The notes under the pieces: generated by a model
Databases searched by the model: none
What the model was told of the DNA's origin: nothing
The model's input: only the letters and a program-made list of their open reading frames with translations
Assembly: GCA_045648705.1 (NCBI GenBank)
Contig: JAZROO010000038.1
Location: 1 to 51,365 of the forward strand
Source: Eubacteriales bacterium
GTDB taxonomy: Bacteria; Bacillota; Clostridia; Oscillospirales; QAKW01
Length of the DNA: 51,365 bases
Direction of reading: 5' to 3'
Translations under genes and position numbers: made by a program
In this document: piece after piece, positions 1 to 50,844 of the stretch
Layout of the letters: every line of letters begins with the position of its first letter
Position numbering within the stretch: the stretch's first letter is position 1

Positions 1-3603
<3,603 letters not shown>

Positions 3604-3763
3604 AAAAACGCTCACTCCATTTCTTTTTTACAACGCCTGCAGAAAAGTCCCAAACTCTTTCCCACAGCTCATTTCTAACACATTTTTGCTTTGGAATATC
3701 GCCTTGTCAAATCGTCAAAATAATATAACAAAGGCATTATATTCCATTATGATACAGTATAAT

Positions 3764-3792
3764 ATTCTAACATAGGTTTTTTATCAAGTCAA
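3764..3792 (-). promoter_or_regulatory. sigma-A promoter of rpoB
   Basis: Minus strand TTGACT-17 nt-TAGAAT with extended TG. Confidence 0.7.
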
Positions 3793-3820
3793 GCACAAAA
3801 ACAAAAAAACTTGAATATAT

Positions 3821-3849
3821 TTGACAATTATTTTTTCTTTATATATAAT
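3821..3849 (+). promoter_or_regulatory. sigma-A promoter of the aroC-like gene
   Basis: Perfect TTGACA-17 nt-TATAAT. Confidence 0.8.
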
Positions 3850-3881
3850 TAAGGAAAGAAATCTAAGTTTTGGAGGACTGT

Positions 3882-4904
3882 ATGTCATCAATAATCGGCA
3901 AAAATTTTACCGTTTCGCTTTTCGGAGACGGTAATTCAGATGTAGTAGGCGCTGTAATTGAGGGGCTTCCGTGCGGATTTGCTCCCGACACTGCTTTGCT
4001 TAAAACCATCGGTGAATATAAAATTGTCAGTGGTATGCATAACGAAAAGTGCAGCGGAACACCGCTTTGTGTCCTGTTCCCCACACCCAAACAACCCAAA
4101 CTTACCGAAACGGTTTCGAAAGATATTATGCGCCCTGCGCTTGATGACCTCGGTGAATATAAAAAATCCGGTGGCAAAATGGTACTTCGAAACGGCCATC
4201 ACTATGCCGCCTTGTTGCAACAAGCAATTTTATTTGCAGGAGAACTTGCCTGTCAGTTGCTTGGGGAGAAAAACATTCACGTTTACTCGCATATTCTGCA
4301 ACTGGGTGAAGTGAGTGATGATTCCTTTGCGGAAATTTCCCGTTTGCAAGATATACTCCCCTCTCTGTCCAAAGGCGAACTCCCTGTGATTGACAAGCGC
4401 AAAGAAATGCTGATGAAACTTGCCATCACCCAAGCGCAAAACAACGATGATACCTTAGGCGGCAAAATCGAAGCCACCGTTACAGGTCTTGACGCCGGTG
4501 TGGGCGATGCTATTTTTGCAGGACTGAAAAGCCGACTTTCTCAGTCGCTTTTTGCCTTACCACAAATCTGCGCCTTAGAATTCGGCAAAGGTGTTGGCGC
4601 CGCCGCCATGACCGGCAGTGAATACAACGACCTTCCTTTTATGGACACCACTTGCGGCAAAGCAGTGACGCAAACCAACCATTGCGGCGGCATTGAGGGA
4701 ACGATGAGCAACGGTATGCCCTTGTTGCTTACCGCAACTTTTGCCCCCTCCCCTTATATTGCCAAAGCGCAGGGCTCAGTACATCGCAGTGAACAACGCG
4801 GTGCCACCCTGCCGCCATTTGAGTCCCCTGTGTTCGATTTCAAAATCAAAAACGAACTGGTACGTGCAGTAATTGCTATTACCATTATTGACGCTTTAAA
4901 ATAA
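3882..4904 (+). CDS. Chorismate synthase (AroC) homologue with degenerate catalytic motifs
   Basis: AroC scaffold visible (SGTPLC, MRP, DTLGGKIE, GLDAGVGDAIF, LEFGKG, GSEYND, TNHCGGIEGTMSNGMP), but GESHG, RPGHAD, SGR and RHDPC motifs are replaced. ATG 3882 follows GGAGG. Confidence 0.8.
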   Translation: MSSIIGKNFTVSLFGDGNSDVVGAVIEGLPCGFAPDTALLKTIGEYKIVSGMHNEKCSGTPLCVLFPTPKQPKLTETVSKDIMRPALDDLGEYKKSGGKMVLRNGHHYAALLQQAILFAGELACQLLGEKNIHVYSHILQLGEVSDDSFAEISRLQDILPSLSKGELPVIDKRKEMLMKLAITQAQNNDDTLGGKIEATVTGLDAGVGDAIFAGLKSRLSQSLFALPQICALEFGKGVGAAAMTGSEYNDLPFMDTTCGKAVTQTNHCGGIEGTMSNGMPLLLTATFAPSPYIAKAQGSVHRSEQRGATLPPFESPVFDFKIKNELVRAVIAITIIDALK

Positions 4905-4939
4905 TTATAGTTTAAAAACCTATACCCAAGGAGTAAAAA

Positions 4940-6697
4940 ATGAAAAAAGCTTTCCGCCCCCTTACCTTTCTTTTATGTGTTTTTCTGTTACTGAGTGCTC
5001 TGCCACTGAGCGCCGCGGCAACCGAAACTACGCCACCGCCCGTTGATCCCATTGAAGCACTTCCCTTTACCGTAACCCACTTCTTTTCCTCGGCTGAATA
5101 TGACGAAAGCACACATACCATAAATTTCTTCGTTCCGGACGACATTACCGAATTGGAACTGACTTTAGTGTTTGACGAAGGCTTTAGCGGAACCCTTTAC
5201 GCTGACCCTGCACTCACTCAGCCTGTAAAAATAAATAAACAGGGAAATTTCAATGTAAAACCCGCGCAAATGCACACTTATTTATATATAAAATGTAACC
5301 AACAAGCCGATATCACGTATTGCCTCGATATCATTTCATTTCGTACACCGATAGAATATCGGGACGATCATCTCGTTGCCGATTGGGCGCGCGTATATGT
5401 TAATTACTGCAATGAGTTGGGCTATGGCATCATCTGCGGTGACCAAAACGGCAATGCAAACCCCAATCACCCCCTGACCCGTTATGAGATTGCTACGATT
5501 GCCGCCAAAATGTCGGGGACTGACACATCGCTCTTTTCCACGTCCAAGCTTCCCTACAAAGACAGCATTGCTTCCTGGGCAAAACCGAGTGTCAATGCCA
5601 TGACCGTTTTAGGCATCATCAGCGGACATAAAGTGCAAAAGAATCTTTATTACTACGGCAGTGACAACGTCACTCGTGAGCAAGTCGCCAAGATTATGGT
5701 GGAACTGGCACTTTTAAAAGAGAACACTCATAAAAGCGCCACTAAGCTTTACAAAGAAAACAAACAAGCCTATGACAAGGCACTGTCTGAATTTGCAGAC
5801 GTTAAAGACATTTCAAATTGGGCAGTGCCTTATATGGCACTTGCCGTCAGTCACTACAAATTTCTCAGCGGTTCCAAGGAAAAAGGTGCTCTTTACTTAA
5901 ATCCCAAAAAAGACATCACCCGCCAAGAGATGACAGCTATTGTAGCAAGAGAACTCAACTATGACATTAATGCTCTTTTAGAAAATCTGCTGACCAAGGT
6001 AAAAAGTTCTCTTGACTCTACCAACAAGCCAAAGTCTGAACTTGTGGCAGTTAAGAATGCCTTTAGTAAGGCACAGTCTGCTTTTCAAAGTTCTTCCAAG
6101 CGCAAAAAAGAAAACGCTTACGTTGATTTGTACATTGAAGCCAAAGATGCCTTTCATCGCTACGTGGTATATCTGAGTCCATCCAATCAAATGACCAATC
6201 CCTATACCGGAGTAGATACGAACGAAGGTGCGCAGATGCAAGCGGTAGCCGACTTGCTCAAACCGATGCTTGAAAAAATGGGATTTGTCGTTTACATTGC
6301 CGACCCCAACTCCAATATACGCGTAAGAGATAAAGATGCGCTCAAGAAAAATGCTGACATTTACGTTGCCATTCATTCCAATGCAACTACCGGCGCCAAC
6401 AACGGCGGCTATCAAGGATCTCTTGTTTTCCATTCCAACAATGCCGGCAGTAAAGAATTGGCAGAAAGCGTCAGCAAATACCTCACCAAGCTTACGCCAA
6501 CCAAAGACAACGGCATCGAAAACGATTCTCTGGCATCGATTCCCTTTGTAGAAATCCGACAACCCGTTATGGCCAACATATTGGCAGAAGTTGAATTCCA
6601 CGATTATCCGACTTATGCCAATTGGATCGTAAACAACAAAAAGAAACTTGCCGAGGCTTTTGCAAAAGGCATTTGGGAATATTTCTATAAAAGTTAA
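4940..6697 (+). CDS. Secreted SLH-domain N-acetylmuramoyl-L-alanine amidase (Amidase_3 family)
   Basis: Signal peptide; three SLH-like repeats (PLTRYEIA, NVTREQVA, DITRQEMT); C-terminal amidase motifs VAIHSNA and LAEVEFHD. Confidence 0.85.
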   Translation: MKKAFRPLTFLLCVFLLLSALPLSAAATETTPPPVDPIEALPFTVTHFFSSAEYDESTHTINFFVPDDITELELTLVFDEGFSGTLYADPALTQPVKINKQGNFNVKPAQMHTYLYIKCNQQADITYCLDIISFRTPIEYRDDHLVADWARVYVNYCNELGYGIICGDQNGNANPNHPLTRYEIATIAAKMSGTDTSLFSTSKLPYKDSIASWAKPSVNAMTVLGIISGHKVQKNLYYYGSDNVTREQVAKIMVELALLKENTHKSATKLYKENKQAYDKALSEFADVKDISNWAVPYMALAVSHYKFLSGSKEKGALYLNPKKDITRQEMTAIVARELNYDINALLENLLTKVKSSLDSTNKPKSELVAVKNAFSKAQSAFQSSSKRKKENAYVDLYIEAKDAFHRYVVYLSPSNQMTNPYTGVDTNEGAQMQAVADLLKPMLEKMGFVVYIADPNSNIRVRDKDALKKNADIYVAIHSNATTGANNGGYQGSLVFHSNNAGSKELAESVSKYLTKLTPTKDNGIENDSLASIPFVEIRQPVMANILAEVEFHDYPTYANWIVNNKKKLAEAFAKGIWEYFYKS

Positions 6698-6698
6698 T

Positions 6699-6736
6699 AA
6701 AAAACAGACCCTCCAATTTGGAGGGTCTGTTTTTTT
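6699..6736. terminator. Bidirectional intrinsic terminator
   Basis: AAAAAACAGACCCTCCAA-T-TTGGAGGGTCTGTTTTTT between convergent genes. Confidence 0.9.
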
Positions 6737-6745
6737 AAGATATAG

Positions 6746-9700
6746 TTATTCTGTTCTGAGAGCAACAACAGGATCTTTCTTTGCCGCACTCTTAGCAGGA
6801 ATGACACCGGAAATCAACGTCAGCACCATACTGATAGCAATCAGCAAAAGCGCAACCTCTATCGGCAAATAGGCGCTTAAGTTGGGAATGCCTGTCAGAT
6901 AATGGATAATCGCATTGATGGGAATACATAGCAAATACGTCACCAACACACCGATAAGTCCCGAGGTAAATCCAATAATAATCGTTTCCGCATTAAACAT
7001 ACTTGAAACGTTTTTCTTGGAGGCACCAATGGCACGTAAAATACCAATTTCTTTGGTACGCTCCTGCACGGAAATCAAGGTGATAACACCAATCATAATC
7101 GAAGAAACCACCAAAGAGATTGCCACAAATGCAATCAAAACATATGTGATGGCATTGATAATAGTAGTAATAGAACTCATCATGATGCCGACATAGTCGG
7201 TATAATGAATCTGCGAAAGTTCTTCTACCGACTCGTTATACTCCGCAATCACCGACTCGATCACGTCTTTGTCTTCAAAGGTGGCGGCATAAAGATTAAT
7301 ACTGGCAGGATCATCGAGATTGACAAACCCAAGTTCTGTCAGATTTTCTTCATAAGTGCTTTCCGAAAACTCCAGCACCTCATCGTGATACAAAGCAAAT
7401 TGCTCATAGGAATAGTCAGGCATTTCTCTATCGAGCATTGCCGCAAGTTGTGCCTTGGGCACGGGCGCCAACTGCGCTTGTACCTGCGCCGCCATTTGCG
7501 CCTTCACCTGCTCGGCAACCATCTGTTCAATCAGTGCATCCAGATCTTCGTCACTTATATCGGATATATATTTCTCAATTTCCTCTTCACTCATACCGAC
7601 CTGCGCACTCATGGCCTCTGCGAGTTTTTGTTCCATCTGCTCTCGGTCCATGGTACCTTTAACTTGCTTTACAGCATTGTCGATTTGCTCATCGGAGGGA
7701 ATGCTCTTGATCTCTACATATACATTTGCTTTTTGCTCGGTATCAAGTTTTTCTATATATGCCTTAAATTCACTTTTCTTTTCAGCATCGGTCAGGCTAC
7801 CGGTCGTGGAGTGAAACGGAAGACCTGTGAAAATATCCATCTTTTTATCGGTCAACTGTGCGCGAACAGAATCTGCTTTCTTGCCTTGCTCGACAACATA
7901 ATCCGTCAGCTTCTTGGTGTATCCGATAGAGCCTGTCAGCATATGGGAAGTGGCGTTTTCACTGGGACGGATAATGCCGCTGACCTTCAGTTTCATCGCA
8001 TTGTCATAAAGATAACGAAGGCCTGAATCGGTCGTTCTGAGATCGGTATATAAACCGCTGCTTTTATCCAGTGTATAGCAATCCGAATTCAGTACAACGC
8101 GAAACTCCATATCGCAAATTTCCTTATAGCTCCAATTGCGCTTTTTCGTGTCATACTTTTCTTTGTTTTTAACGGCTTCAAACACAGCATCTATCTCTGC
8201 CTTGGTCTCCAGACCCAAAGCATACAGTGTCAGATCGTCCAATTCGTTATTTTCATCTACGACAAGTACAATTTCATCTCTGGAATTCGGCCAAGAGCCA
8301 TAAAGCAAGTCGTACTGACTTTCCAGCACAGGACTGATCAGTGCGCCGTCTTTGCCCGTAAGCATTTCGTTCCACATTTTTGTGCCGCCGCCCATCATCG
8401 GCATAGATGCGGCAGAATCCATTGAAAAGCCCATCGTTTCCCCTGCATTCATCATGGCATTCATATCCAAATCAAGATTTTCTGCCAATGCCTTTTGCAA
8501 AAGTTCTTGGGTATCGGAATAAACGATGTCACCGTTTTCATCCTTTGTATATACTAACAAATCAAAATCGTAAGTATATTGCACACCGCTTAAAGCGTTA
8601 TAAAGTTCGCCCGTTTCTTCCCCTTGTTTCATTTGGCGCTCAATATATGATTTAAAGGATTTCAGGTCGTTTTTCTTATCCTCCATATTATTAAGGGCGG
8701 TAATCATATCCACCATTACCGACTGCGAATACACTTTATCCTTATCGTGCTTCACGGTGTTTTCGTCAGCTACTCCCATAAATGTCTGCATCAAAGTGGT
8801 AATATCCACCGTGGTGGCTTCAATCGTCAAAGGATAAGATGCAAGTGTATCTTCCTGCACCCCGTCGATATACCCCGTCATACCATTGGATACCGCATAA
8901 ATCAGGGCAATACCGATAATACCGATGGAGCCTGCAAAAGATGTCAAAATCGTTCTGCCCTTTTTGGTAAACAGGTTTTTCAGAGAAAGACCAAAGGACG
9001 TCGCAAAAGACATCGACGGCTTTTTCTCTCTCTTTTTAGCTTTTTTGTTGCTCGGTGCGGGAGCAATCTCCTGCTTCTCAACGGGGGCAGTGTCGGACAA
9101 AATGTTACCGTCAAGCATTCGCACGATTCTGGTGGAATACTGCTCGGCAAGTTCGGGGTTATGGGTTACCATAATAACCAGACGGTCACGGGAAATTTCT
9201 TTTAAAATCTCCATTACCTGAACACTGGTTTCGCTATCAAGTGCGCCTGTCGGCTCGTCCGCCAATACGATATCGGGATTGTTGACAATCGCACGGGCAA
9301 TGGCAACACGTTGCATCTGACCGCCCGACATTTCGGAAGGCTTCTTTTTCAGTTGGTCTGCAAGACCTACTTTTTCAAGTGCTTCTTTAGCACGGCGCCG
9401 TCTTTCCTTTTTGGAAACGCCCGACAAACTGAGCGCAAGTTCCACATTTTGCAATACGCTTTGGTGCGGAATCAGATTATAATTTTGAAATACAAAACCG
9501 ACAGAGTGGTTGCGATATGCATCCCAATCCCTGTCTTTATAGTTTTTAGTGGAAACACCACCGATTACCAGATCACCGCTGCTATACTGGTCAAGACCAC
9601 CAATGATATTAAGCATCGTGGTTTTGCCGCAACCGCTCGGACCCAGAATGGAGACAAATTCGCTTTTACGAAAACGCAGTGAAACACCGCGCAAAGCATG

Positions 9701-9754
9701 TACCGTAGTATCTCCCATCTGATAATCTTTACAAATATTACTAAGAGTAAGCAT
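6746..9754 (-). CDS. ABC transporter ATP-binding/permease fusion (MacB/FtsX family)
   Basis: Walker A GPSGCGKTT, MSGGQMQR, LADEPTGALD; C-terminal FtsX permease (SVQERTKEIGILRAIGA, AAKKDPVVALRTE). Confidence 0.93.
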   Translation of the reverse strand: MLTLSNICKDYQMGDTTVHALRGVSLRFRKSEFVSILGPSGCGKTTMLNIIGGLDQYSSGDLVIGGVSTKNYKDRDWDAYRNHSVGFVFQNYNLIPHQSVLQNVELALSLSGVSKKERRRRAKEALEKVGLADQLKKKPSEMSGGQMQRVAIARAIVNNPDIVLADEPTGALDSETSVQVMEILKEISRDRLVIMVTHNPELAEQYSTRIVRMLDGNILSDTAPVEKQEIAPAPSNKKAKKREKKPSMSFATSFGLSLKNLFTKKGRTILTSFAGSIGIIGIALIYAVSNGMTGYIDGVQEDTLASYPLTIEATTVDITTLMQTFMGVADENTVKHDKDKVYSQSVMVDMITALNNMEDKKNDLKSFKSYIERQMKQGEETGELYNALSGVQYTYDFDLLVYTKDENGDIVYSDTQELLQKALAENLDLDMNAMMNAGETMGFSMDSAASMPMMGGGTKMWNEMLTGKDGALISPVLESQYDLLYGSWPNSRDEIVLVVDENNELDDLTLYALGLETKAEIDAVFEAVKNKEKYDTKKRNWSYKEICDMEFRVVLNSDCYTLDKSSGLYTDLRTTDSGLRYLYDNAMKLKVSGIIRPSENATSHMLTGSIGYTKKLTDYVVEQGKKADSVRAQLTDKKMDIFTGLPFHSTTGSLTDAEKKSEFKAYIEKLDTEQKANVYVEIKSIPSDEQIDNAVKQVKGTMDREQMEQKLAEAMSAQVGMSEEEIEKYISDISDEDLDALIEQMVAEQVKAQMAAQVQAQLAPVPKAQLAAMLDREMPDYSYEQFALYHDEVLEFSESTYEENLTELGFVNLDDPASINLYAATFEDKDVIESVIAEYNESVEELSQIHYTDYVGIMMSSITTIINAITYVLIAFVAISLVVSSIMIGVITLISVQERTKEIGILRAIGASKKNVSSMFNAETIIIGFTSGLIGVLVTYLLCIPINAIIHYLTGIPNLSAYLPIEVALLLIAISMVLTLISGVIPAKSAAKKDPVVALRTE

Positions 9755-17408: not shown

Positions 17409-17828
17409 TTAACAGTTAATGGTGATTTTTAATGTTGTACCAACACCCAGTTGGGTTTCAATCTCCAAATTGTCAGAATATTTTTTAATGTTGGGCAGCC
17501 CCATTCCTGCGCCAAATCCAAGAGAGCGCACATCATCGGGCGCGGTGGAATACCCTTCCGTCATCGCAAGGTCGATATTCTCAATACCGGGGCCGCGATC
17601 TGCCATGGTTACGCAGATTTTTTCAGGTGTGATTTCCACATCGGCCGTGCCGCCCTGCGCATGAATCACCATATTGATTTCCGCCTCATACATTGCTATG
17701 GCAACCCGTTGCACAATTTGCGTGGGAAATCCCAGTTTCTTCAAAGTGGTTTTAACGGAAGCCGACGCCTCTCCGGCAGAGATAAAATCATCACCGTCTA
17801 CCACGTAAGAAAGTTTGATCGGTTCCAT
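17409..17828 (-). CDS. Anti-sigma-factor-type Ser/Thr kinase (RsbT/RsbW-like HATPase)
   Basis: AIAMYEAEINMVIHA, DRGPGIENIDLAMTEGYSTA, GFGAGMGLPN; start MEPIK after GAGGAG. Confidence 0.88.
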   Translation of the reverse strand: MEPIKLSYVVDGDDFISAGEASASVKTTLKKLGFPTQIVQRVAIAMYEAEINMVIHAQGGTADVEITPEKICVTMADRGPGIENIDLAMTEGYSTAPDDVRSLGFGAGMGLPNIKKYSDNLEIETQLGVGTTLKITINC

Positions 17829-17829
17829 A

Positions 17830-18186
17830 TTACTCCTCACACTCGCTTTCCGAGCGCAAGCCGTTCATATATAATTTGCCGCAAGCGGGATACATACGTT
17901 CCTCGGTGGTCATCAAAACCATTCCGTTTTGTTCTCCAAGCGCAATGGTATTCTGATCCGGCATCTTTCCTCTGACAAAAATGATGCACTTCATATCCAT
18001 CATAATTGCAGTGCGCACCGTTTGCAGATTTAAAAGCCCTGTGAGCAATACTGCCTGATCCTCTACGAATGCAAGTACGTCACTCATCATATCTGACCCG
18101 AAAGCAGAGGAAACCTCCGTTTCCAACTTGTCCTGCCCACAATGTACCTTGGCATTCAGCAATGTTTGAATTTCACTGATTTTCAC
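17830..18186 (-). CDS. DRTGG-domain protein
   Basis: AFGSDMMSDVLAF...LLTGL...IIFVRGK; GTG start after AAGGAG. Confidence 0.82.
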   Translation of the reverse strand: MKISEIQTLLNAKVHCGQDKLETEVSSAFGSDMMSDVLAFVEDQAVLLTGLLNLQTVRTAIMMDMKCIIFVRGKMPDQNTIALGEQNGMVLMTTEERMYPACGKLYMNGLRSESECEE

Positions 18187-27047: not shown

Positions 27048-27953
27048 ATGAATCAACAAAAATTCAAAGGCAATTCAATGATGTTGCTGACAGCTCTTAT
27101 CTGGGGCGTAGCTTTTGTGGCGCAAAGCGGCGCTATGAACAGTATAGACCCGCTTTCTTTTATGGCGGCGCGGTATCTTCTGGGCGCAGTGGTACTCTTA
27201 CCGGTCATTGCTCTCTTTAGCAAAAAAGGCGAAAATAAAAACACAAAGACTTTATGGCAAGGCGGCATTTGTTGCGGTGTCATTCTCTTTATTGCCTCTG
27301 CCCTGCAACAATACGGCATTGTTTATACCACCACTGCCAAAGCAGGTTTTATCACCACGCTTTACGTTGTTTTCGTTCCGCTTTCAAGACTGCTGTTTGG
27401 CAAACGTCCCTCTTTTATTGTTTGGATCGGTGTCTTTCTGAGTACGGTTGGATTTTATTTTTTAACGATTACAGATGAGCTTCGTCTTTCTTTAGGAGAT
27501 ATTTTGGTGCTTTTGTGCGCCATTGCCTTTACGGCACACATTATGGTTATTGACCATTTTTCTCCGAAGGTGGACGGTGTGCAGATGTCCTGCATTCAAT
27601 TTTTGGTATGCGGACTTTTGAGCCTGGCAGGATCACTTATTTTCGGTCCTGCGGCACCTGCTTCTTTGATAGAGGCTTGGATGCCGATTGTTTACACGGG
27701 TGTTTTATCAAGCGGTGTTGCTTACACGCTACAGATCATCGCACAAAAATACACCGACCCCGTTATGATCAGCCTTATAGGGTCTCTTGAGGCAGTGTTT
27801 GCCACCCTTGCCGGCTTTATATTTTTCAAAATCGGCTATATTGACAACGGAGACATCACCTCGCGGCAACTGATTGGTTGCGCAATGGTGTTCGCGGCTG
27901 TCATTTTGGTGCAACTGCCGCTCGGCACGGGAGGTAAAAATGAAAAAGGCTAA
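27048..27953 (+). CDS. DMT/EamA family transporter
   Basis: ALIWGVAFVAQ, KAGFITTLYVVFVP, GVAYTLQIIAQK, LEAVFA; ATG 27048 after GGAGG. Confidence 0.92.
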   Translation: MNQQKFKGNSMMLLTALIWGVAFVAQSGAMNSIDPLSFMAARYLLGAVVLLPVIALFSKKGENKNTKTLWQGGICCGVILFIASALQQYGIVYTTTAKAGFITTLYVVFVPLSRLLFGKRPSFIVWIGVFLSTVGFYFLTITDELRLSLGDILVLLCAIAFTAHIMVIDHFSPKVDGVQMSCIQFLVCGLLSLAGSLIFGPAAPASLIEAWMPIVYTGVLSSGVAYTLQIIAQKYTDPVMISLIGSLEAVFATLAGFIFFKIGYIDNGDITSRQLIGCAMVFAAVILVQLPLGTGGKNEKG

Positions 27954-28683
27954 AAACTTGTTTTTGGCAATCGCGAGTATTCTTTCGGCAGTGTGTTCCG
28001 CTTTGCTTTTAAACGGATTTGACGGACTGCTTTCCTTTGTGAGCAAGTGGACTCATTTTGATTATCAAAGCGGTGCCTTTATATTGGCAATTGCGTGTTT
28101 TGTCAGTTGCATTTGCACCTGTTTGTTACTGCCTGCCGCGCAAGTAAGACTGCAGTATGAGGTCAGCGTCGGTAAAGCGTTTGCTTTTTCTGTAAAGAGA
28201 TATTGCTTTACATATATGGTTCTGCCGTTTTTTATTATGCGCTTTGCTTGTATTGATAAAATGCTGCCCTATCTGCAAGAAAATCAAATCCGCAACCCAC
28301 TGTACCACCCAACCATTTGGAAAGAATGTGCCGAGTGGGGCAGTATGCTGATGGTACTTGTTTTGATATTTTGGGTTTGCTTGCTGGCGCTTAATTTATT
28401 CGGTGTGCTTCGATACGGGCACATTGCTGTCAATCTGGCAAGTCTTTTATGCTTATTGCCGCTGATGTATCTGACACTTGATTACGCGCCTGTCACCCAT
28501 ATTCAAAATATCACACTCACCGTTTTGGTGCTTTTGGTCTTTATCGGTGCCATTTTAGCTGCTTTGCTCATACCAAAACAAGCCACCCCACCCCTGCGCC
28601 CTTTCTTTGCACAGGCGGAAAATGACGATTTGTTCTGGCGCAAAAAGCGCGAAACCGAACGGAAATGGCGCTCTTATAAATAA
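27940..28683 (+). CDS. Hypothetical integral membrane protein (about 6 TM)
   Basis: Hydrophobic segments; ATG 27940 after GGAGG, overlapping the DMT gene end; no family recognised. Confidence 0.7.
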   Translation: MKKAKNLFLAIASILSAVCSALLLNGFDGLLSFVSKWTHFDYQSGAFILAIACFVSCICTCLLLPAAQVRLQYEVSVGKAFAFSVKRYCFTYMVLPFFIMRFACIDKMLPYLQENQIRNPLYHPTIWKECAEWGSMLMVLVLIFWVCLLALNLFGVLRYGHIAVNLASLLCLLPLMYLTLDYAPVTHIQNITLTVLVLLVFIGAILAALLIPKQATPPLRPFFAQAENDDLFWRKKRETERKWRSYK

Positions 28684-28769: not shown

Positions 28770-31700
28770 ATGCTTTACAAGAAAAATTCTGCAAAAACCC
28801 TTTCTGACGAGTTGTTTCAAAATCCGACCAGTGAATATCGCGGCACACCCTTTTGGTCGTGGAACACAAAGTTGGATAAAAAGACAATTTCCGAACAAAT
28901 CGGCCATCTTAAAGAAATGGGTTTTGGTGGATATCATATTCATTCCAGAACGGGACTTGATACCGAGTATCTGAGTGACGAATTTATGGAAATGGTTGAC
29001 CACGCACATAAAGAAGGCGTTAAAAACGATATGCTCACCTGGCTTTATGACGAAGATCGTTGGTCCTCGGGCGCCGCAGGCGGTAAAACAACCGTAAATC
29101 CTGTTTTTCGTCGCAAAAGACTGGGACTGTATCCCGATGCGCAGTTCGGCAACACACCCAAAGAACAAGCCCTTGAAGAAGGCACTCCGTTCCTTCTTGG
29201 TTGCTATGACGTAGTGTTGGATACCGAAGGATATATTGAAAGCTATAAAAGAATTGCTTTTGAAGATGCCGCAGAAGGTACCAAATGGTATGCTTACTGC
29301 GAAAACGAAAAACCGAGCACCTGGTTTAATGGCTTTACCTACCCCGATACCGGCAATCCCCAAGCCATCAAGGAATTTATCAACAACACCTACGAGAAGT
29401 ATAAGGCTACCCTCGGAAACGCTTTCGGCGAAAGTGTCCCTGCTATTTTCACTGATGAGCCCAATATTAATCACGAAAAATACCTTGGCATCCCCTCTCC
29501 CGAATTTGTCGGCAGACTGATGTACACTTGGTCTCTTAATTTCGATGCCGAGTACCAAAAGGCATACGCTCAGGATATTCTTGAAGTTCTGCCCGAGGTT
29601 ATCTGGAATAAAAAAGACAGATCGGATTCTTTGGTTAAATACAGATTTTTCGATTTAGCAGCCGAACTCTTTGCCATCAACTTCTCCAAGCAACTTGGTG
29701 ATTGGTGCAACGAAAACAACATTGCTTTCACAGGTCACCTGCTGCGTGAGCCTGAACTTTGGTCACAAGCAATCACCTGCGGTGAAACCATGCGCTCCTA
29801 TGAGTACTTTGGTATCCCCGGCATTGATATCCTGTGTGACTACAGAGAGTTTACCACCGCCAAACAGGTACAGTCCGTCGTTCATCAGTTAGGCAAAGAA
29901 GCAATGCTTTCCGAACTGTACGGTGTTACCAACTGGGACTATGATTTCAGAGGTCATAAATCGCAAGGCGACTGGCAAGCAGCTCTCGGTGTCACCGTTC
30001 GTGTTCCCCATCTGAGCTGGATGTCCATGGCAGGTGAAGCCAAGCGCGACTATCCTGCCGCTATCGGATACCAATCCCCGTGGTACAAAGAATATTCCTA
30101 CATTGAGGATCATTTTGCCAGAGTCAATGCCGCCATTACCAGAGGTAAGCCTGTGGTTAAAGTCGGCGTAATTCATCCAATTGAAAGCCATTGGATCAAC
30201 GTCGGTCCTCATAGTCAATGTTCCGCCACCAACGAGTCTTTGGAGCAAAATTTTGCCAATATCACCCGTTGGCTGCTTGAGGGACACCTTGACTTTAACT
30301 ACATCTGTGAATCTTGCATTCCCAGATTCCAAAACGGCACCGCCATCGGTCAGATGCAGTATGATGCCATCGTCGTTCCTGCCTGTTTGAACATTCGCTC
30401 CACCACTTTAGAGTACCTTGAAAAATTCAAGGCAGCCGGCAATAAAGTCGTGTTTATGGGCGCTTGTCCCTCTTATGTTGACGGTGTTCAGAGCAACCAA
30501 TGCCAAGCTTTTTATGAGCAATGCGAAAACGTCAATTTCGATAAAGCATCTATCTTAAAGGCACTTTCCGAGCAAAGACACGTCAGCTTCACAAACGAAG
30601 AGGGCGCCGAGTCAAACGAGCTGATCTATGCTTACAGAAATGACAACGATTGTGATTGGCTGTTTATTGCCCACAGTGCCAACGTCAGCGGTGAAGATGC
30701 CAAACGCGGTCCCTTCCAACCCGACGTCACCCGTCCTGTACCCACAAAAATCAAAATCAAAGGCGAATTTACAGTGATGGAATACGACACACTGTCAGGA
30801 GAAATCAAACCTGCCACATGCGAATATAATAACGGTTACACAATTTTAAACAGAGATTTCTATACCAATGACAGTTTGCTTTTAAAACTGCTCCCCGGCA
30901 AAGCCGAGCAAATCGCTGAGCAATCCACGGCTTTGAATGAAGTTAAGGAATTTGAAGTGGATACACCGGTAGATTATGAAACCAGTGAGCCCAACGTTTT
31001 GTTGCTTGACTGCGCAGAATACCGTATCGACAATATGCCCTTCAACGCCAAAGAAGAACTGCTTCGTGCTGATAATGCCGCGCGTAACATTCTGGGCTTC
31101 CCACCGAGATTCGGTCATCTTGCACAGCCGTACACTATGAAAAAGCAACCCGAAGAGCATACCCTGACTTTACGTTTCACCTTCAAGAGTGATATCAAGG
31201 TCAAAAATGCGCTACTTGCGATGGAAGACGTTGAGAAAAATACCATCACACTCAACGGCAAACCCGTTTCCAACACCCCTGTGGGTTATTTCACCGACAA
31301 ATCCATCAAAACCATCAAACTCCCCACCATCAAAAAGGGAGAAAACGTTTTGATTGCCACCCTGCCCTACGGTCCGCGTACCAACGTGGAATGGTGCTAC
31401 ATTCTGGGTGATTTCGGTGTTGAACTCAGCGGCAAATTTACCAAGATCGTCAGCAAGGCCGATAAACTTGGCTTTTCAAACGTCGTTAATCAGAAAATGC
31501 CTTTCTATGCCGCTAATATCACCTATAAATTCGATATTGAACTGGACGAGGACGGCTATGCCCAAATCAATACTTCTTATTACAGAGGCGCTTTGATTTC
31601 TGTGAAGGTGGACGGCAAAAAGTGCGGTAACATTGTTTTCCCGCCCTACAATCTTTTGACCGACAAACTTTCCAAAGGCAAACATAGCATTGAACTTACG

Positions 31701-31868
31701 GTGTTTGGCAACCGCTTTAACAGTTTCGGTTCCCTGCACTCTGTGAATCTGACACAGAAATACTTCGGTCCTGATGCCTGGCGCACCAAAGGTGCTGACT
31801 GGTTTTATGAATACAACACCAAACCCTTCGGTATCTTAAAAAGCCCCGTCATCAAAATTTTTAAATAA
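28770..31868 (+). CDS. Large cytoplasmic glycoside hydrolase, GH106 (alpha-L-rhamnosidase)-like
   Basis: YRGTPFWSWN, MGFGGYHIH, WLYDEDRWSSG, AIFTDEP, PGIDIL, SELYGV; C-terminal beta-sandwich; no signal peptide. Confidence 0.7.
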   Translation: MLYKKNSAKTLSDELFQNPTSEYRGTPFWSWNTKLDKKTISEQIGHLKEMGFGGYHIHSRTGLDTEYLSDEFMEMVDHAHKEGVKNDMLTWLYDEDRWSSGAAGGKTTVNPVFRRKRLGLYPDAQFGNTPKEQALEEGTPFLLGCYDVVLDTEGYIESYKRIAFEDAAEGTKWYAYCENEKPSTWFNGFTYPDTGNPQAIKEFINNTYEKYKATLGNAFGESVPAIFTDEPNINHEKYLGIPSPEFVGRLMYTWSLNFDAEYQKAYAQDILEVLPEVIWNKKDRSDSLVKYRFFDLAAELFAINFSKQLGDWCNENNIAFTGHLLREPELWSQAITCGETMRSYEYFGIPGIDILCDYREFTTAKQVQSVVHQLGKEAMLSELYGVTNWDYDFRGHKSQGDWQAALGVTVRVPHLSWMSMAGEAKRDYPAAIGYQSPWYKEYSYIEDHFARVNAAITRGKPVVKVGVIHPIESHWINVGPHSQCSATNESLEQNFANITRWLLEGHLDFNYICESCIPRFQNGTAIGQMQYDAIVVPACLNIRSTTLEYLEKFKAAGNKVVFMGACPSYVDGVQSNQCQAFYEQCENVNFDKASILKALSEQRHVSFTNEEGAESNELIYAYRNDNDCDWLFIAHSANVSGEDAKRGPFQPDVTRPVPTKIKIKGEFTVMEYDTLSGEIKPATCEYNNGYTILNRDFYTNDSLLLKLLPGKAEQIAEQSTALNEVKEFEVDTPVDYETSEPNVLLLDCAEYRIDNMPFNAKEELLRADNAARNILGFPPRFGHLAQPYTMKKQPEEHTLTLRFTFKSDIKVKNALLAMEDVEKNTITLNGKPVSNTPVGYFTDKSIKTIKLPTIKKGENVLIATLPYGPRTNVEWCYILGDFGVELSGKFTKIVSKADKLGFSNVVNQKMPFYAANITYKFDIELDEDGYAQINTSYYRGALISVKVDGKKCGNIVFPPYNLLTDKLSKGKHSIELTVFGNRFNSFGSLHSVNLTQKYFGPDAWRTKGADWFYEYNTKPFGILKSPVIKIFK

Positions 31869-48615: not shown

Positions 48616-49284
48616 ATGAAGAAAAACAAAGGTTTAGCATATGCGGCTTTACTGATAACATTTATTATTTTCAACGTAATTGCTTTTGTAGCGCCTACTG
48701 CAAAAACGTCAACCTTTTGGATCGCTTATGCATTTAGTTTTATTGCTTTTGCTTTGCAAATTGTCGTTTGGAATATTGCTTTTAGAGGGACAAAAACACT
48801 AAAAAGTAAATTTCTTGGCATTTCTCTTATTGCAGTCGGAACTATTTATTTCACAGTTCAAATTGCTGCTTTTGCAGTATTTATGTTTTTCCCGACAATA
48901 GCAAATTGGATTGCCATCGTAGTGTGTTCGCTGATTCTTGGAATTTCTTTGATTTGTCTAATTGGAACTGAAGTGGCTAGAGACGAGATTGCTCGTGTTG
49001 AATCTAAAGTAGAAAAGAAAGTCTTTTATATAAAATCGCTTCAAGTTGATGCAGAAATATTGGCAAATACAGAAACCGATCCTAATATAAAAGCGGCACT
49101 CATAAAATTGGCCGAAGCAATTCGTTTTAGCGATCCAATGAGTAATGAAGCTCTTGCGGATCTGGAAAAGGAAATCTCGGATAAGTTCGCCGAACTCAAA
49201 ACCGCAGAAAATAAAGTGGAAATTATTAAAGTCCTTGATTTGCTCATCATCGAGCGTAACAAAAAAGCAAAATTTTTAAAATAA
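48616..49284 (+). CDS. Hypothetical membrane protein (4 TM plus helical C-terminal domain)
   Basis: Four hydrophobic segments followed by LAEAIRFSDPMSNEAL..LE.EI...ERN; RBS GGGAGG. Confidence 0.8.
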   Translation: MKKNKGLAYAALLITFIIFNVIAFVAPTAKTSTFWIAYAFSFIAFALQIVVWNIAFRGTKTLKSKFLGISLIAVGTIYFTVQIAAFAVFMFFPTIANWIAIVVCSLILGISLICLIGTEVARDEIARVESKVEKKVFYIKSLQVDAEILANTETDPNIKAALIKLAEAIRFSDPMSNEALADLEKEISDKFAELKTAENKVEIIKVLDLLIIERNKKAKFLK

Positions 49285-49296
49285 AGGAGAATCATT

Positions 49297-50844
49297 ATGA
49301 ATTTCGATGCTGTTTTTACGGTTAAAAAAGAATTTAGCAAAGATGATTTTCTTAGAGAACTCATTATCGAACTCGGCACTAAAAACAACACGCCCGCAGA
49401 CGTTGTAGAGGCCAATTTTAAAGATGTGCAAGAATCTGTTAGAGAAGTTATCGTTTGTTCTGCTCAAGTAGAAGGTACTTGTACTGCTTCTGTCGGTTAT
49501 GATCGCCAAGAGCCTTATACTGATTATGAAACATATAGAGAAAAGGTTGGAGATAGCTACGTAACCAGACAGAGAGCGGTAACAAAATATCGCACAGTTA
49601 CCGATTGGCAAATATTTAGAACCCAATATGTCGGCGAAGCAACTTGTGCCGCTTACAACTCCGATGAGTTTGGCTATGATGATAGTGGAATCGTATCAGC
49701 TATAAAATCCGCTAAGAACGATAGCATAGTTAAAAAAGGCGAAGCTACAGTTAACTCAACCGGACTTGCAAGAGCTATAGCTGCTTGTGAATCGCAAGTA
49801 GAACGGGGTTCGGTAACATTCCCCGGCGACCGACACAAAGATGTCAATTACAATTCAAACTCTGATGTTCAATCTTTGTCTTGCTACAAATTGCCTTATT
49901 ATGAGGTTGTCTATACATACAACGACAAAGACTATACAGCGTGCTGCTTTGCATGCGGAAACATAAACATTAGAACAGAAACTCCTCCTAATGATATAGA
50001 TATTACCGCTATTGTTCAAGAAAAAACTGAAAATTTAGAAAAAGCAAAAAAACAGTCTTGGACATTATTTACAGTATCTTTGATTGTTGCCGCTATTCTA
50101 TGCATAGCGTTAAAATTCGCTTGGCTGTTCCCGATTCCAATCGTTTTATTGCTTAAAGCAAAAAAAGATAGCGAAGCATATAGCAAAGAATATAAGGCTT
50201 GTTCAGACAGTCTTTCAAAGAACGTTGCCGACTCCAAAATTGCCGCACTTAAAGTTGCTCTTGAAAAGCATGGTTATGAACCGATGAGCAAAGACCTTAG
50301 TGATTCCCTTGAAAATTGCTCTGTGCCGGGAGCAAAAGATTTGAAGCCAATTAAGGGACGTGTCACTTTGTCTTGGGTTTTAGCCATTATACTTGCTATT
50401 GTATCTGTTTTTACAATCAATTCTGCTCATCAGGAAACCCTACACTCCCCCAAGCAGTTAGAAATTAGCGTTGTAAGCAAAGAGGTTGAATATAATCCTG
50501 ACGTGAGTCCATACATAAACGGCTGTTATTATATTCATTATGATTATGAAATTGAGGCCAAAAAAACCGGTATTAATTATATAGAATTTAAACTGCGTAT
50601 TAAAGATAAAAAAGGAAATGAAGTCGGCTTTATTAAATCATCTATTTCCGATTTGAATTTGGACGCAGGCGATGAAAAAGTTGTCACTCTTTCATTGGAA
50701 GAAAATCAACCGGAGAAAAATGAATTCTTCACTGAACTTTACAACGCAGATTTTAAGGATTATAAGTACGAGATTGAAATTGGCGCAATACAATTCACAG
50801 ACGGGAAATATTATCACAATGACAAATATGACCAATTCGAGTAA
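49297..50844 (+). CDS. Membrane-anchored protein with a YdjG-like N-terminal domain
   Basis: TASVGYDRQE...YRTVTDW and LPYYEVVYTYNDKDY motifs; TM hairpin, coiled region, a further TM and a beta-rich C-terminal domain; RBS AAGGAG. Confidence 0.7.
   Translation: MNFDAVFTVKKEFSKDDFLRELIIELGTKNNTPADVVEANFKDVQESVREVIVCSAQVEGTCTASVGYDRQEPYTDYETYREKVGDSYVTRQRAVTKYRTVTDWQIFRTQYVGEATCAAYNSDEFGYDDSGIVSAIKSAKNDSIVKKGEATVNSTGLARAIAACESQVERGSVTFPGDRHKDVNYNSNSDVQSLSCYKLPYYEVVYTYNDKDYTACCFACGNINIRTETPPNDIDITAIVQEKTENLEKAKKQSWTLFTVSLIVAAILCIALKFAWLFPIPIVLLLKAKKDSEAYSKEYKACSDSLSKNVADSKIAALKVALEKHGYEPMSKDLSDSLENCSVPGAKDLKPIKGRVTLSWVLAIILAIVSVFTINSAHQETLHSPKQLEISVVSKEVEYNPDVSPYINGCYYIHYDYEIEAKKTGINYIEFKLRIKDKKGNEVGFIKSSISDLNLDAGDEKVVTLSLEENQPEKNEFFTELYNADFKDYKYEIEIGAIQFTDGKYYHNDKYDQFE

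Follow-up and report, generated by a model that had tools for sequence, protein, structure and literature searches.

Chorismate synthase (AroC; EC 4.2.3.5; PF01264; TIGR00033 and NF003793; structures 1QXO, 1UM0 and 7RCA) is treated as a family with one function, and databases label every PF01264 protein 'chorismate synthase'. In PMC11633415, its beta-alpha-beta sandwich is described as unique to chorismate synthases, the substrate, EPSP (5-enolpyruvylshikimate 3-phosphate), is bound by five Arg, and the substrate site is assigned to loops L1, L3, L4, L6–L8 and L20–L22, helices alpha2–alpha4 and strands beta11–12. According to PMC3509576, His110 protonates flavin N1, mutation of the invariant Asp (that of GRHD) reduces activity 300–600-fold and two invariant Ser serve as a proton relay, the last as stated in the title of a reference within that source. 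Here we describe an AroC-like gene in a stretch of DNA of 51,365 nucleotides from a Eubacteriales bacterium (assembly GCA_045648705.1, contig JAZROO010000038.1, positions 1 to 51,365), which as a whole we call the window. The gene (3882..4904, + strand) encodes a protein of 340 residues (P0001), a catalytically degenerate chorismate synthase paralog by the evidence of Pfam, NCBIfam, AlphaFold2 (AF2) modeling and the ratio of nonsynonymous to synonymous substitution rates (dN/dS). Its fold and overall length are like those of AroC. Compared with AroC, it lacks the catalytic His pair, the GRHD Asp, the GESHG Ser, the KPTPS Lys and the lid loop (about 17 residues); its gene lies apart from the aro operon, and it has DKRKEMLMKL and HRSEQR...LPPF segments of its own. 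It is best read as a pseudoenzyme with respect to the EPSP lyase reaction, and is probably a selected, non-lyase protein of the AroC fold that acts by binding a putative partner through a new surface.

Fold and catalytic motifs of the AroC-like protein

The open reading frame (ORF) at 3882–4904 (+) comprises 340 codons uninterrupted by a stop or frameshift. An alternative TTG start lies earlier, at 3870, and all orthologs begin with MSS at the ATG at 3882. P0001 matched the Pfam model PF01264 (Chorismate_synt) with 169.3 bits (gathering cut-off 27, E-value 1e-49) over profile positions 54–296 of 327. Given this E-value and the 24 family members sharing the same changes, the match does not arise by chance. 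P0001 scored below all NCBIfam equivalogs (TIGR00033, 162.6 vs. a cut-off of 321; NF003793, 154 vs. 212.2; NF009113, 67.3 vs. 799), and all 11 matches with E<1e-9 in a PDB sequence search were chorismate synthases. The AF2 model, built from a 75-row alignment, had a mean predicted local distance difference test score (pLDDT) of 92.0 and a predicted template modeling (TM) score of 0.91, its weakest block being the degenerate loop at 101–110 (pLDDT 71). Foldseek aligned it to 1um0, 7rca and 1qxo with TM scores of 0.84, 0.86 and 0.85 (E-values 1e-24 to 1e-27), and the best listed match outside chorismate synthase had an E-value of 0.087. An earlier reading of the letters alone (the sequence-only reading) had proposed a near full-length AroC fold in an unbroken frame. 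Both parts were borne out, by the intact 340-codon ORF, the PF01264 match (169 bits) and a confident predicted model (pLDDT 92) that matches solved AroC structures (TM 0.84–0.86).

We compared motifs in two alignments, one of P0001 with clostridial canonical AroC (A1; 32–36% identity) and one of 24 family rows against 51 canonical rows (A2). Every motif alteration listed in the sequence-only reading was recovered in A1 (GESHG, the Arg loop, RPGHAD, GGGHFSGR, KPTPS and GRHDPC), and the structural glycines it had described as retained proved invariant in A2 (G15, G23, G32, G51, G59, G208, G235, G270 and G278). GDGNS (residues 15–19; 3924..3938, +) replaces GESHG in both alignments, with loss of the first catalytic His and of the Ser, residues that are 100% conserved in the 51 canonical rows and variable in the 24 family rows. 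This His is His10 in S. pneumoniae numbering, and the second, in RPGHAD, is His110. After residue 40 (3996..4007, +), a gap in A1 marks a junction without the Arg-bearing active-site (lid) loop of about 17 residues. Its canonical form (R..R.E) has invariant R47, R57 and E59 (own-AroC numbering, used here for all canonical residues), none of which has a counterpart in the family. RPALDD (residues 84–89; 4131..4148, +; A1 and A2) replaces RPGHAD with loss of the second catalytic His. R84, P85 and D89 of this motif are kept, and residue 87 is F in 67% of family rows and H in 98% of canonical rows. The two catalytic His positions, occupied by N18 and L87 in P0001, are thus both variable across the family.

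The remaining motifs are altered as well. RNGHHYAAL (residues 102–110; 4185..4211, +) replaces RGGGHFSGR in A1 and A2, with loss of the phosphate-binding Arg and Ser. APSPY (residues 288–292; 4743..4757, +; both alignments) replaces KPTPS, whose K, conserved in 96% of canonical rows, is A in 88% of family rows, and whose T has become S. PPFESPV (311–317) stands in place of GRHDPC. Here G324, R325, H326 and D327 are present in 100% of the 51 canonical rows, and the family varies between E, A, P and a gap. Motif counts were consistent with these alignments: GxSH, RPxHxD and GRHD occur in none of 23 family proteins and in 93, 87 and 93, respectively, of 97 other matches.

Of the 88 A2 columns in which canonical AroC reaches a conservation of 90% or more, the family keeps 44, replaces four by a fixed residue, and has 40 variable or deleted. 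Under a slightly different cut, five canonical columns are replaced by a fixed residue, including K298A, T300S and S203T. The lost canonical columns include S17, H18, R47, T55, R57, E59, N85, S90, D92, Y93 and D116, together with G119, G121, F123, G125, R126, T128, G324, R325, H326, D327 and R333. Mapping the five EPSP-binding Arg by motif position, we infer that only R84 has a counterpart in P0001. The family keeps the DT/SxGG...E motif, the GxPxGxG loop, EFGxG, GSxxND, TNHxGG and GMP. Set against what defines a functional chorismate synthase, P0001 falls short of the equivalog cut-offs and is without both His, the GRHD Asp, the Arg cluster and the pathway linkage. As is characteristic of a pseudoenzyme, it is an enzyme homolog without key catalytic residues, under purifying selection across species.

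Selection, inheritance and distribution of the family

A canonical aroC, suggested by the sequence-only reading as something to look for elsewhere in the genome, was found on contig C100 of the window's genome (G000; 1.66 Mb, 94.5% complete) with 384.8 bits. It adjoins an aroE/aroK-type fusion and aroB in an aro operon, and its product carries GESHG, RRP, RPGHAD, GGGHFSGR, KPTPT and GRHDPC. The paralog and the canonical aroC were both present in all six genomes carrying the AroC-like gene, with 32–35% identity between the two proteins.

All six AroC-like genes with DNA are intact, with no stop or frameshift. Nei–Gojobori dN/dS was 0.074 for G000–G203 (dS 1.22; Nd, 66.5 over 778.8 sites; Sd, 145.5 over 241.2 sites; Fisher p 2e-59) and 0.145 for G202–G204 (dS 1.31), values that are approximate because a dS of 1.2–1.3 is near saturation. 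For the same two pairs, canonical aroC gave 0.091 and 0.188. The remaining pairs were saturated (dS >1.6 or undefined) and were not relied on. Of the orthologs with the same substitutions, whose collection had been proposed together with a dN/dS estimate, the six with DNA are thus intact copies, with dN/dS of 0.07–0.15 on informative pairs. The frameshifts and dN/dS near 1 that would have marked simple decay were not seen among them. The AroC-like gene is under strong purifying selection and is not decaying.

The expression signals of the gene are conserved as well. A sigma-70-type promoter, TTGACA-17-TATAAT (3821..3849, +), matches the consensus at 12 of 12 positions, and a GGAGG ribosome-binding site (3872..3876, +) is read directly from the sequence 5 nt 5' of the ATG, both as the sequence-only reading had described them. 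In the six orthologous loci, the -35 element TTGACA is invariant and the -10 element is TATAAT, TAAAAT or TAGAAT; a purine-rich GGAG-type ribosome-binding site lies at the equivalent place in the other five. A search of sequencing runs returned no RNA dataset holding the sequence, and only four DNA runs, with 5–6% of words.

A protein search recovered 21 relatives at 47–85% identity (P0002–P0022) and one at 36% (P0023), the altered motifs being common to all. The next matches were canonical AroC at 36% identity or less. The sole family member with a source name, P0013, is labeled chorismate synthase. Five further genomes carry the AroC-like gene (loci L033–L037). In a quick IQ-TREE analysis (LG+C20; 80 sequences), the 24 family rows were set apart by a branch with SH-aLRT support of 99. 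Inside the family, G205 is outermost, followed by G202 with G204, and then G201 with the pair G000 and G203. The canonical aroC genes of these genomes branch in the same order, an argument for vertical descent.

The distribution is narrow. Among 201 genomes sampled from the order, matches of at least 350 bits occurred only in the window's genus (three of three genomes), and the other 176 order genomes with a match had only canonical-type matches of up to 168 bits. All five genomes of this genus that were reached carry the gene (G000, G094=G204, G162=G202, G206=G203 and G207=G205), and the region upstream of rpoB, the gene next to it, holds unrelated genes instead in six genomes of two sister genera. 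When the family profile was searched against 1.84 billion representatives, three proteins scored higher than the canonical plateau (about 300 bits), all with the family motifs. One, P0022 (482 bits), had been among the rows of the family alignment; P0121 (400 bits) and P0122 (379 bits) were new. With only three representatives above the plateau, the family is real but small. Its branching indicates a single origin and vertical inheritance, alongside a canonical aroC, within one small clade of Clostridia from the gut.

A metagenome scan with the family alignment found a KRKEMLM-type motif in none of the 80 loci kept, and the ESM Atlas yielded chorismate-synthase clusters only. The best metagenome locus (L130, 40% identity) was rejected, being a canonical aroC with a frameshift on a contig of low coverage; this human-gut sequence (L130:1779-2850) has several stops after about residue 190, probably because the assembly shifted the frame, and has no relation to the family. 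The sole match in a search for fused or longer forms, P0270, was also set aside: it couples a P-type ATPase with a fragment of canonical type and is probably a chimeric gene call.

Degeneracy in PF01264 may extend beyond the window's family. Seven other representatives among 148 profile matches were without all three motifs (GxSH, RPxHxD and GRHD), of which P0205 and P0171 proved only partly degenerate on reading. In a quick site-heterogeneous IQ-TREE analysis of 55 rows, P0137, P0191, P0251 and P0258 joined the family on a branch with SH-aLRT support of 99, and P0138, P0171, P0179 and P0205, all marked degenerate, fell among canonical sequences. Unlike the window's family, the four that joined it have a long loop, poor in Arg, and no DKRKEMLMKL helix. 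The grouping is a hint of an older degenerate branch within PF01264, made up of these four and the family, although long branches may contribute to it. The four proteins are also isolated: of the 118 relatives listed for P0191, none was degenerate, P0258 had no close relative in 399 scored genomes of the class, and searches for relatives of the four sister proteins gave no usable genomic context.

New constraint and the possible function of the AroC-like protein

The family has gained conserved positions of its own. Of its 92 conserved columns, 30 are family-specific at a conservation of at least 90% (24 family vs. 51 canonical rows). The main new constraint is DKRKEMLMKL (residues 171–180; 4392..4421, +; A2), at the start of residues 172–187, one of the long helices by DSSP on the AF2 model. 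Each position of this segment is 92–100% conserved in the 24 family rows and, except for M178, 22–45% conserved in canonical AroC, whose residues there are mostly polar and variable apart from this Met. A second family-specific segment, HRSEQR...LPPF (residues 301–313; 4782..4820, +; A2), takes the place of the C-terminal stretch that leads up to GRHDPC, with H301 conserved at 83%, R302 at 92%, R306 at 88%, and L310, P311 and P312 at 100%. Other gained positions are K47, P67, G91-E-Y-K94, F118, G165, G214, D255, F287, H301, R302, R306 and L310-P-P312. A nucleotide-level element in codons 167–180 was considered and rejected: third-position identity was 0.60 there vs. 0.51 overall, with two Met codons in the segment. 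Since synonymous sites show no extra conservation, the constraint on 171–180 is on the protein and not on the DNA. Constraint has left the old catalytic constellation for EPSP and flavin mononucleotide (FMN) and moved to new positions, chiefly 171–180, then GEYK 91–94 and 301–313. Old active-site columns that vary beside new columns that are invariant support the proposal, made from the sequence alone, that loss of chemistry with retention of the fold suggests a non-enzymatic or new function.

We think it probable that this function is the binding of a partner. The beta-alpha-beta sandwich of AroC would be kept as a stable body only, with EPSP conversion gone, and the DKRKEMLMKL helix, perhaps with HRSEQR...LPPF, would form a binding surface for a putative protein or a new ligand. 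The conserved consensus promoter and strong ribosome-binding site would drive the gene, which in most genomes is probably co-transcribed with a secreted SLH amidase. Partner binding appears the most likely role because the helix is probably exposed and is not among the substrate-site elements. By element order, helix 172–187 should come after alpha4, outside the described substrate site, and its probable exposure to solvent follows from the variable, polar residues at the equivalent canonical positions. Nucleic-acid binding, an idea raised by the KRK patch and the rpoB neighbor, was rejected as unsupported, since the family's median pI of 5.8 and net charge of -5 equal those of canonical AroC.

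Several points weigh against partner binding. The partner is putative only, and the placement of helix 172–187 relative to the pocket and the subunit interfaces is a prediction. The new residues K172, R173, K174, H301, R302 and R306 could be rebuilding an anion site instead of a protein interface. The flavin-proximal Gly-rich motifs are retained or sharpened (TNHCGG at 265–270 and GMP at 278–280), along with R84, P85 and D89, and a ligand pocket may persist. Binding of FMN can be argued both ways from the residues present: the K of KPTPS has become A, yet TNH(C)GG and GMP are kept. Over the same genome pairs, AroC-like proteins share 84, 55, 51, 50 and 38% identity vs. 88, 75, 70, 68 and 59% for canonical AroC, a faster evolution that shows partly relaxed constraint, and the near-saturated dS makes the measured selection approximate. 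Finally, one locus (L037) has the AroC-like gene and no amidase, and the conserved gene order elsewhere is weak evidence for a link with the amidase because the genomes are close relatives (rpoB 88–93% identical).

Among the alternatives, a neofunctionalized enzyme deserves the most attention, even if it is unlikely. Its pocket would have been rebuilt for another substrate, one without phosphate or of different charge, perhaps with the flavin retained, and K172, R173, K174, H267, C268, H301, R302 and R306 would be tentative candidates for new catalytic or binding residues. Such an enzyme would explain why new polar and charged residues are invariant on a kept fold, why the Gly-rich motifs TNH(C)GG and GMP and the residues R84, P85 and D89 are retained, and why dN/dS is as low as in a real chorismate synthase. 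A retuned pocket should, however, have fixed new residues in place of the old ones; instead, 40 of the 88 conserved columns are variable or deleted and only four are replaced. The loss of the KPTPS Lys, the deletion of the lid loop and the lack of metabolic gene neighbors also speak against it, as does helix 172–187, which we infer from element order to lie outside the substrate site given in PMC11633415.

Partner binding could also involve AroC itself. The AroC-like protein might be a regulatory or scaffolding subunit that hetero-oligomerizes with canonical AroC, normally a homotetramer, and tunes aromatic amino-acid flux. This possibility, which we hold to be improbable as a specific claim, overlaps with the reading we favor, because canonical AroC is one possible partner. 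Canonical aroC co-occurs in all six genomes, the sandwich core and 44 of the 88 conserved canonical columns are kept, and there are precedents for dead paralogs as partners: in trypanosomatids (PMC5201418 and PMC3663545), the S-adenosylmethionine decarboxylase (AdoMetDC) prozyme and the deoxyhypusine synthase (DHS) paralog are dead copies that bind and regulate the active enzyme, which they activate. Against it, there is no linkage between the gene and the aro operon, the two proteins are only 32–35% identical, and the strongest new constraint falls on a helix with a variable canonical counterpart and not on an obvious old interface.

A role together with the downstream amidase is less probable still. 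The secreted SLH-domain N-acetylmuramoyl-L-alanine amidase (4940..6697, +; Pfam SLH and Amidase_3, signal peptide) is probably co-transcribed with the AroC-like gene, which might supply a cytoplasmic factor for amidase expression or export, or handle muropeptide or enolpyruvyl-type wall intermediates. The amidase starts 35 bp 3' of the AroC-like stop codon in the window, and the spacing is 20–35 bp in all five loci that have it. A single strong promoter lies ahead of the pair in the window, and the + strand from 4904 to 4940 showed no site resembling a terminator, in agreement with what had been read from the sequence alone. A weak promoter-like site (4873–4902, 9 of 12 matches) lies just 5' of the amidase, however. 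The paralog occurs without an amidase at L037, the amidase has a signal peptide and the paralog has none, and order shared between closely related genomes carries little weight. 

Two further alternatives fare worse. A still-working chorismate synthase, a second isozyme using other residues, would fit the full-length fold, the above-threshold Pfam match and the strong purifying selection. We regard it as very improbable: neither catalytic His remains, the Asp and the proton-relay Ser are gone, only one EPSP-binding Arg of five is left, the lost catalytic positions differ even between family members, the lid loop is deleted, and the protein reaches only half of the equivalog cut-offs. A duplicate in decay, a pseudogene too recent to be disrupted, would evolve faster than the canonical copy, as this gene does, but is scarcely credible given six copies intact across lineages with saturated synonymous divergence, dN/dS of 0.07–0.15, thirty newly invariant columns and a conserved promoter and ribosome-binding site.

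Neighboring genes and comparison with known systems

The AroC-like gene is divergent from rpoB (1..3615, -; six RNA_pol_Rpb2 domains), which runs off the window and is the neighbor in all six loci. A Pfam scan of the 36 other window ORFs of at least 150 aa found no aro gene. The divergent rpoB, the absence of aro neighbors and the amidase 35 bp downstream had all been noted in the sequence-only reading, and each stood. A hairpin with a 17-bp palindromic stem (6699..6735) between the convergent amidase and ABC/FtsX genes is the likely terminator of the unit; it is listed on the - strand, has A and T runs on both sides, and is the first hairpin after the AroC-like gene. The order rpoB, AroC-like gene, SLH amidase, ABC/FtsX and Fe-hydrogenase is kept in five of the six loci, with identities across related genomes of 88–93% for rpoB, 74–93% for the transporter and 45–74% for the amidase. 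In the sixth locus (L037:7102-8059), which has neither the amidase nor the transporter, two other ORFs come after the AroC-like gene. One is Fur-like (128 aa); the other (169 aa) is convergent and has membrane segments and a helix-turn-helix of the XRE type. Both names come from reading the translations.

The convergent transporter gene (6746-9754, -) encodes a 1002-aa fusion of an ABC ATPase and an FtsX-type permease, with 74–93% identity in four of five related loci. Its PADLOC matches (mad3 and others) concern the generic ATPase and permease parts only, and PADLOC returned no match for the AroC-like paralog or the downstream amidase. Between rpoB and the AroC-like gene, a 46-bp block (3724-3769, with 3785-3793) is near-invariant in all six loci, with flanks that diverge. 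On the minus strand it starts with a TTGACT-17-TAGAAT promoter (3792-3764), followed by the first 40 or so nt of a probable rpoB 5' leader. The 145-nt leader has a folding energy of -32.6 kcal/mol (z = -2.4), and no Rfam family matches the block, which may have a regulatory role in the leader of rpoB. Elsewhere in the window, five ORFs have no Pfam family at E <= 1e-5: 28770-31868 (+, 1032 aa), 49297-50844 (+, 515 aa), 48616-49284 (+, 222 aa), 27874-28683 (+, 269 aa) and 17451-17975 (+, 174 aa).

These results bear on annotation. Transfer of the label is wrong for the AroC-like clade, and pathway reconstructions could count the paralog as aroC. The protein also offers a natural case of the reuse of an enzyme scaffold, in which constraint has moved from a pocket to a new segment of ten residues, probably at the surface. 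In a bolder version, which we consider doubtful, a protein of the chorismate-synthase fold would here for the first time have left catalysis wholly, its DKRKEMLMKL helix docking on a partner to regulate aromatic flux or wall turnover, and would form an older non-enzymatic branch of PF01264 with the four degenerate representatives. Candidates for the partner in that version would be the tetramer of canonical AroC and proteins of the cell envelope or linked to transcription. Finding one would reveal a new regulatory principle for the shikimate pathway or for the wall biology of uncultured gut Clostridia, with a general impact limited by the narrow scope of one genus and a few relatives.

Our full-text literature searches, in a library without most subscription journals, turned up no account of a chorismate synthase paralog that is degenerate or AroC-like. 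Plant 'chorismate synthase 2' isozymes were rejected as a precedent, being ordinary enzymes. The short Bacteroidales-type AroC (about 300–330 aa; P0099–P0120), divergent and shortened PF01264 proteins from the same search as the P0001 family, were likewise rejected as related degenerate forms, because the sequences read keep the catalytic motifs. Six of the seven retain GESHG, the RRR loop, RPGHAD, GGGRxSxRE and GRHD, and P0094 varies conservatively (GQSHS, RPSHAD). By their motifs, these short proteins are evidently ordinary enzymes with a trimmed surface region.

Parallels come from dead paralogs of other enzymes. HisZ, a paralog of histidyl-tRNA synthetase (HisRS) in ATP phosphoribosyltransferase (ATP-PRT), is a pseudoenzyme of this kind. 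For the AdoMetDC prozyme, the DHS paralog and HisZ, binding to and regulation of an active enzyme have been shown, whereas the partner of the AroC-like protein is putative. Like all three, it is a selected paralog of an oligomeric enzyme that has lost its catalytic residues and coexists with the active enzyme.

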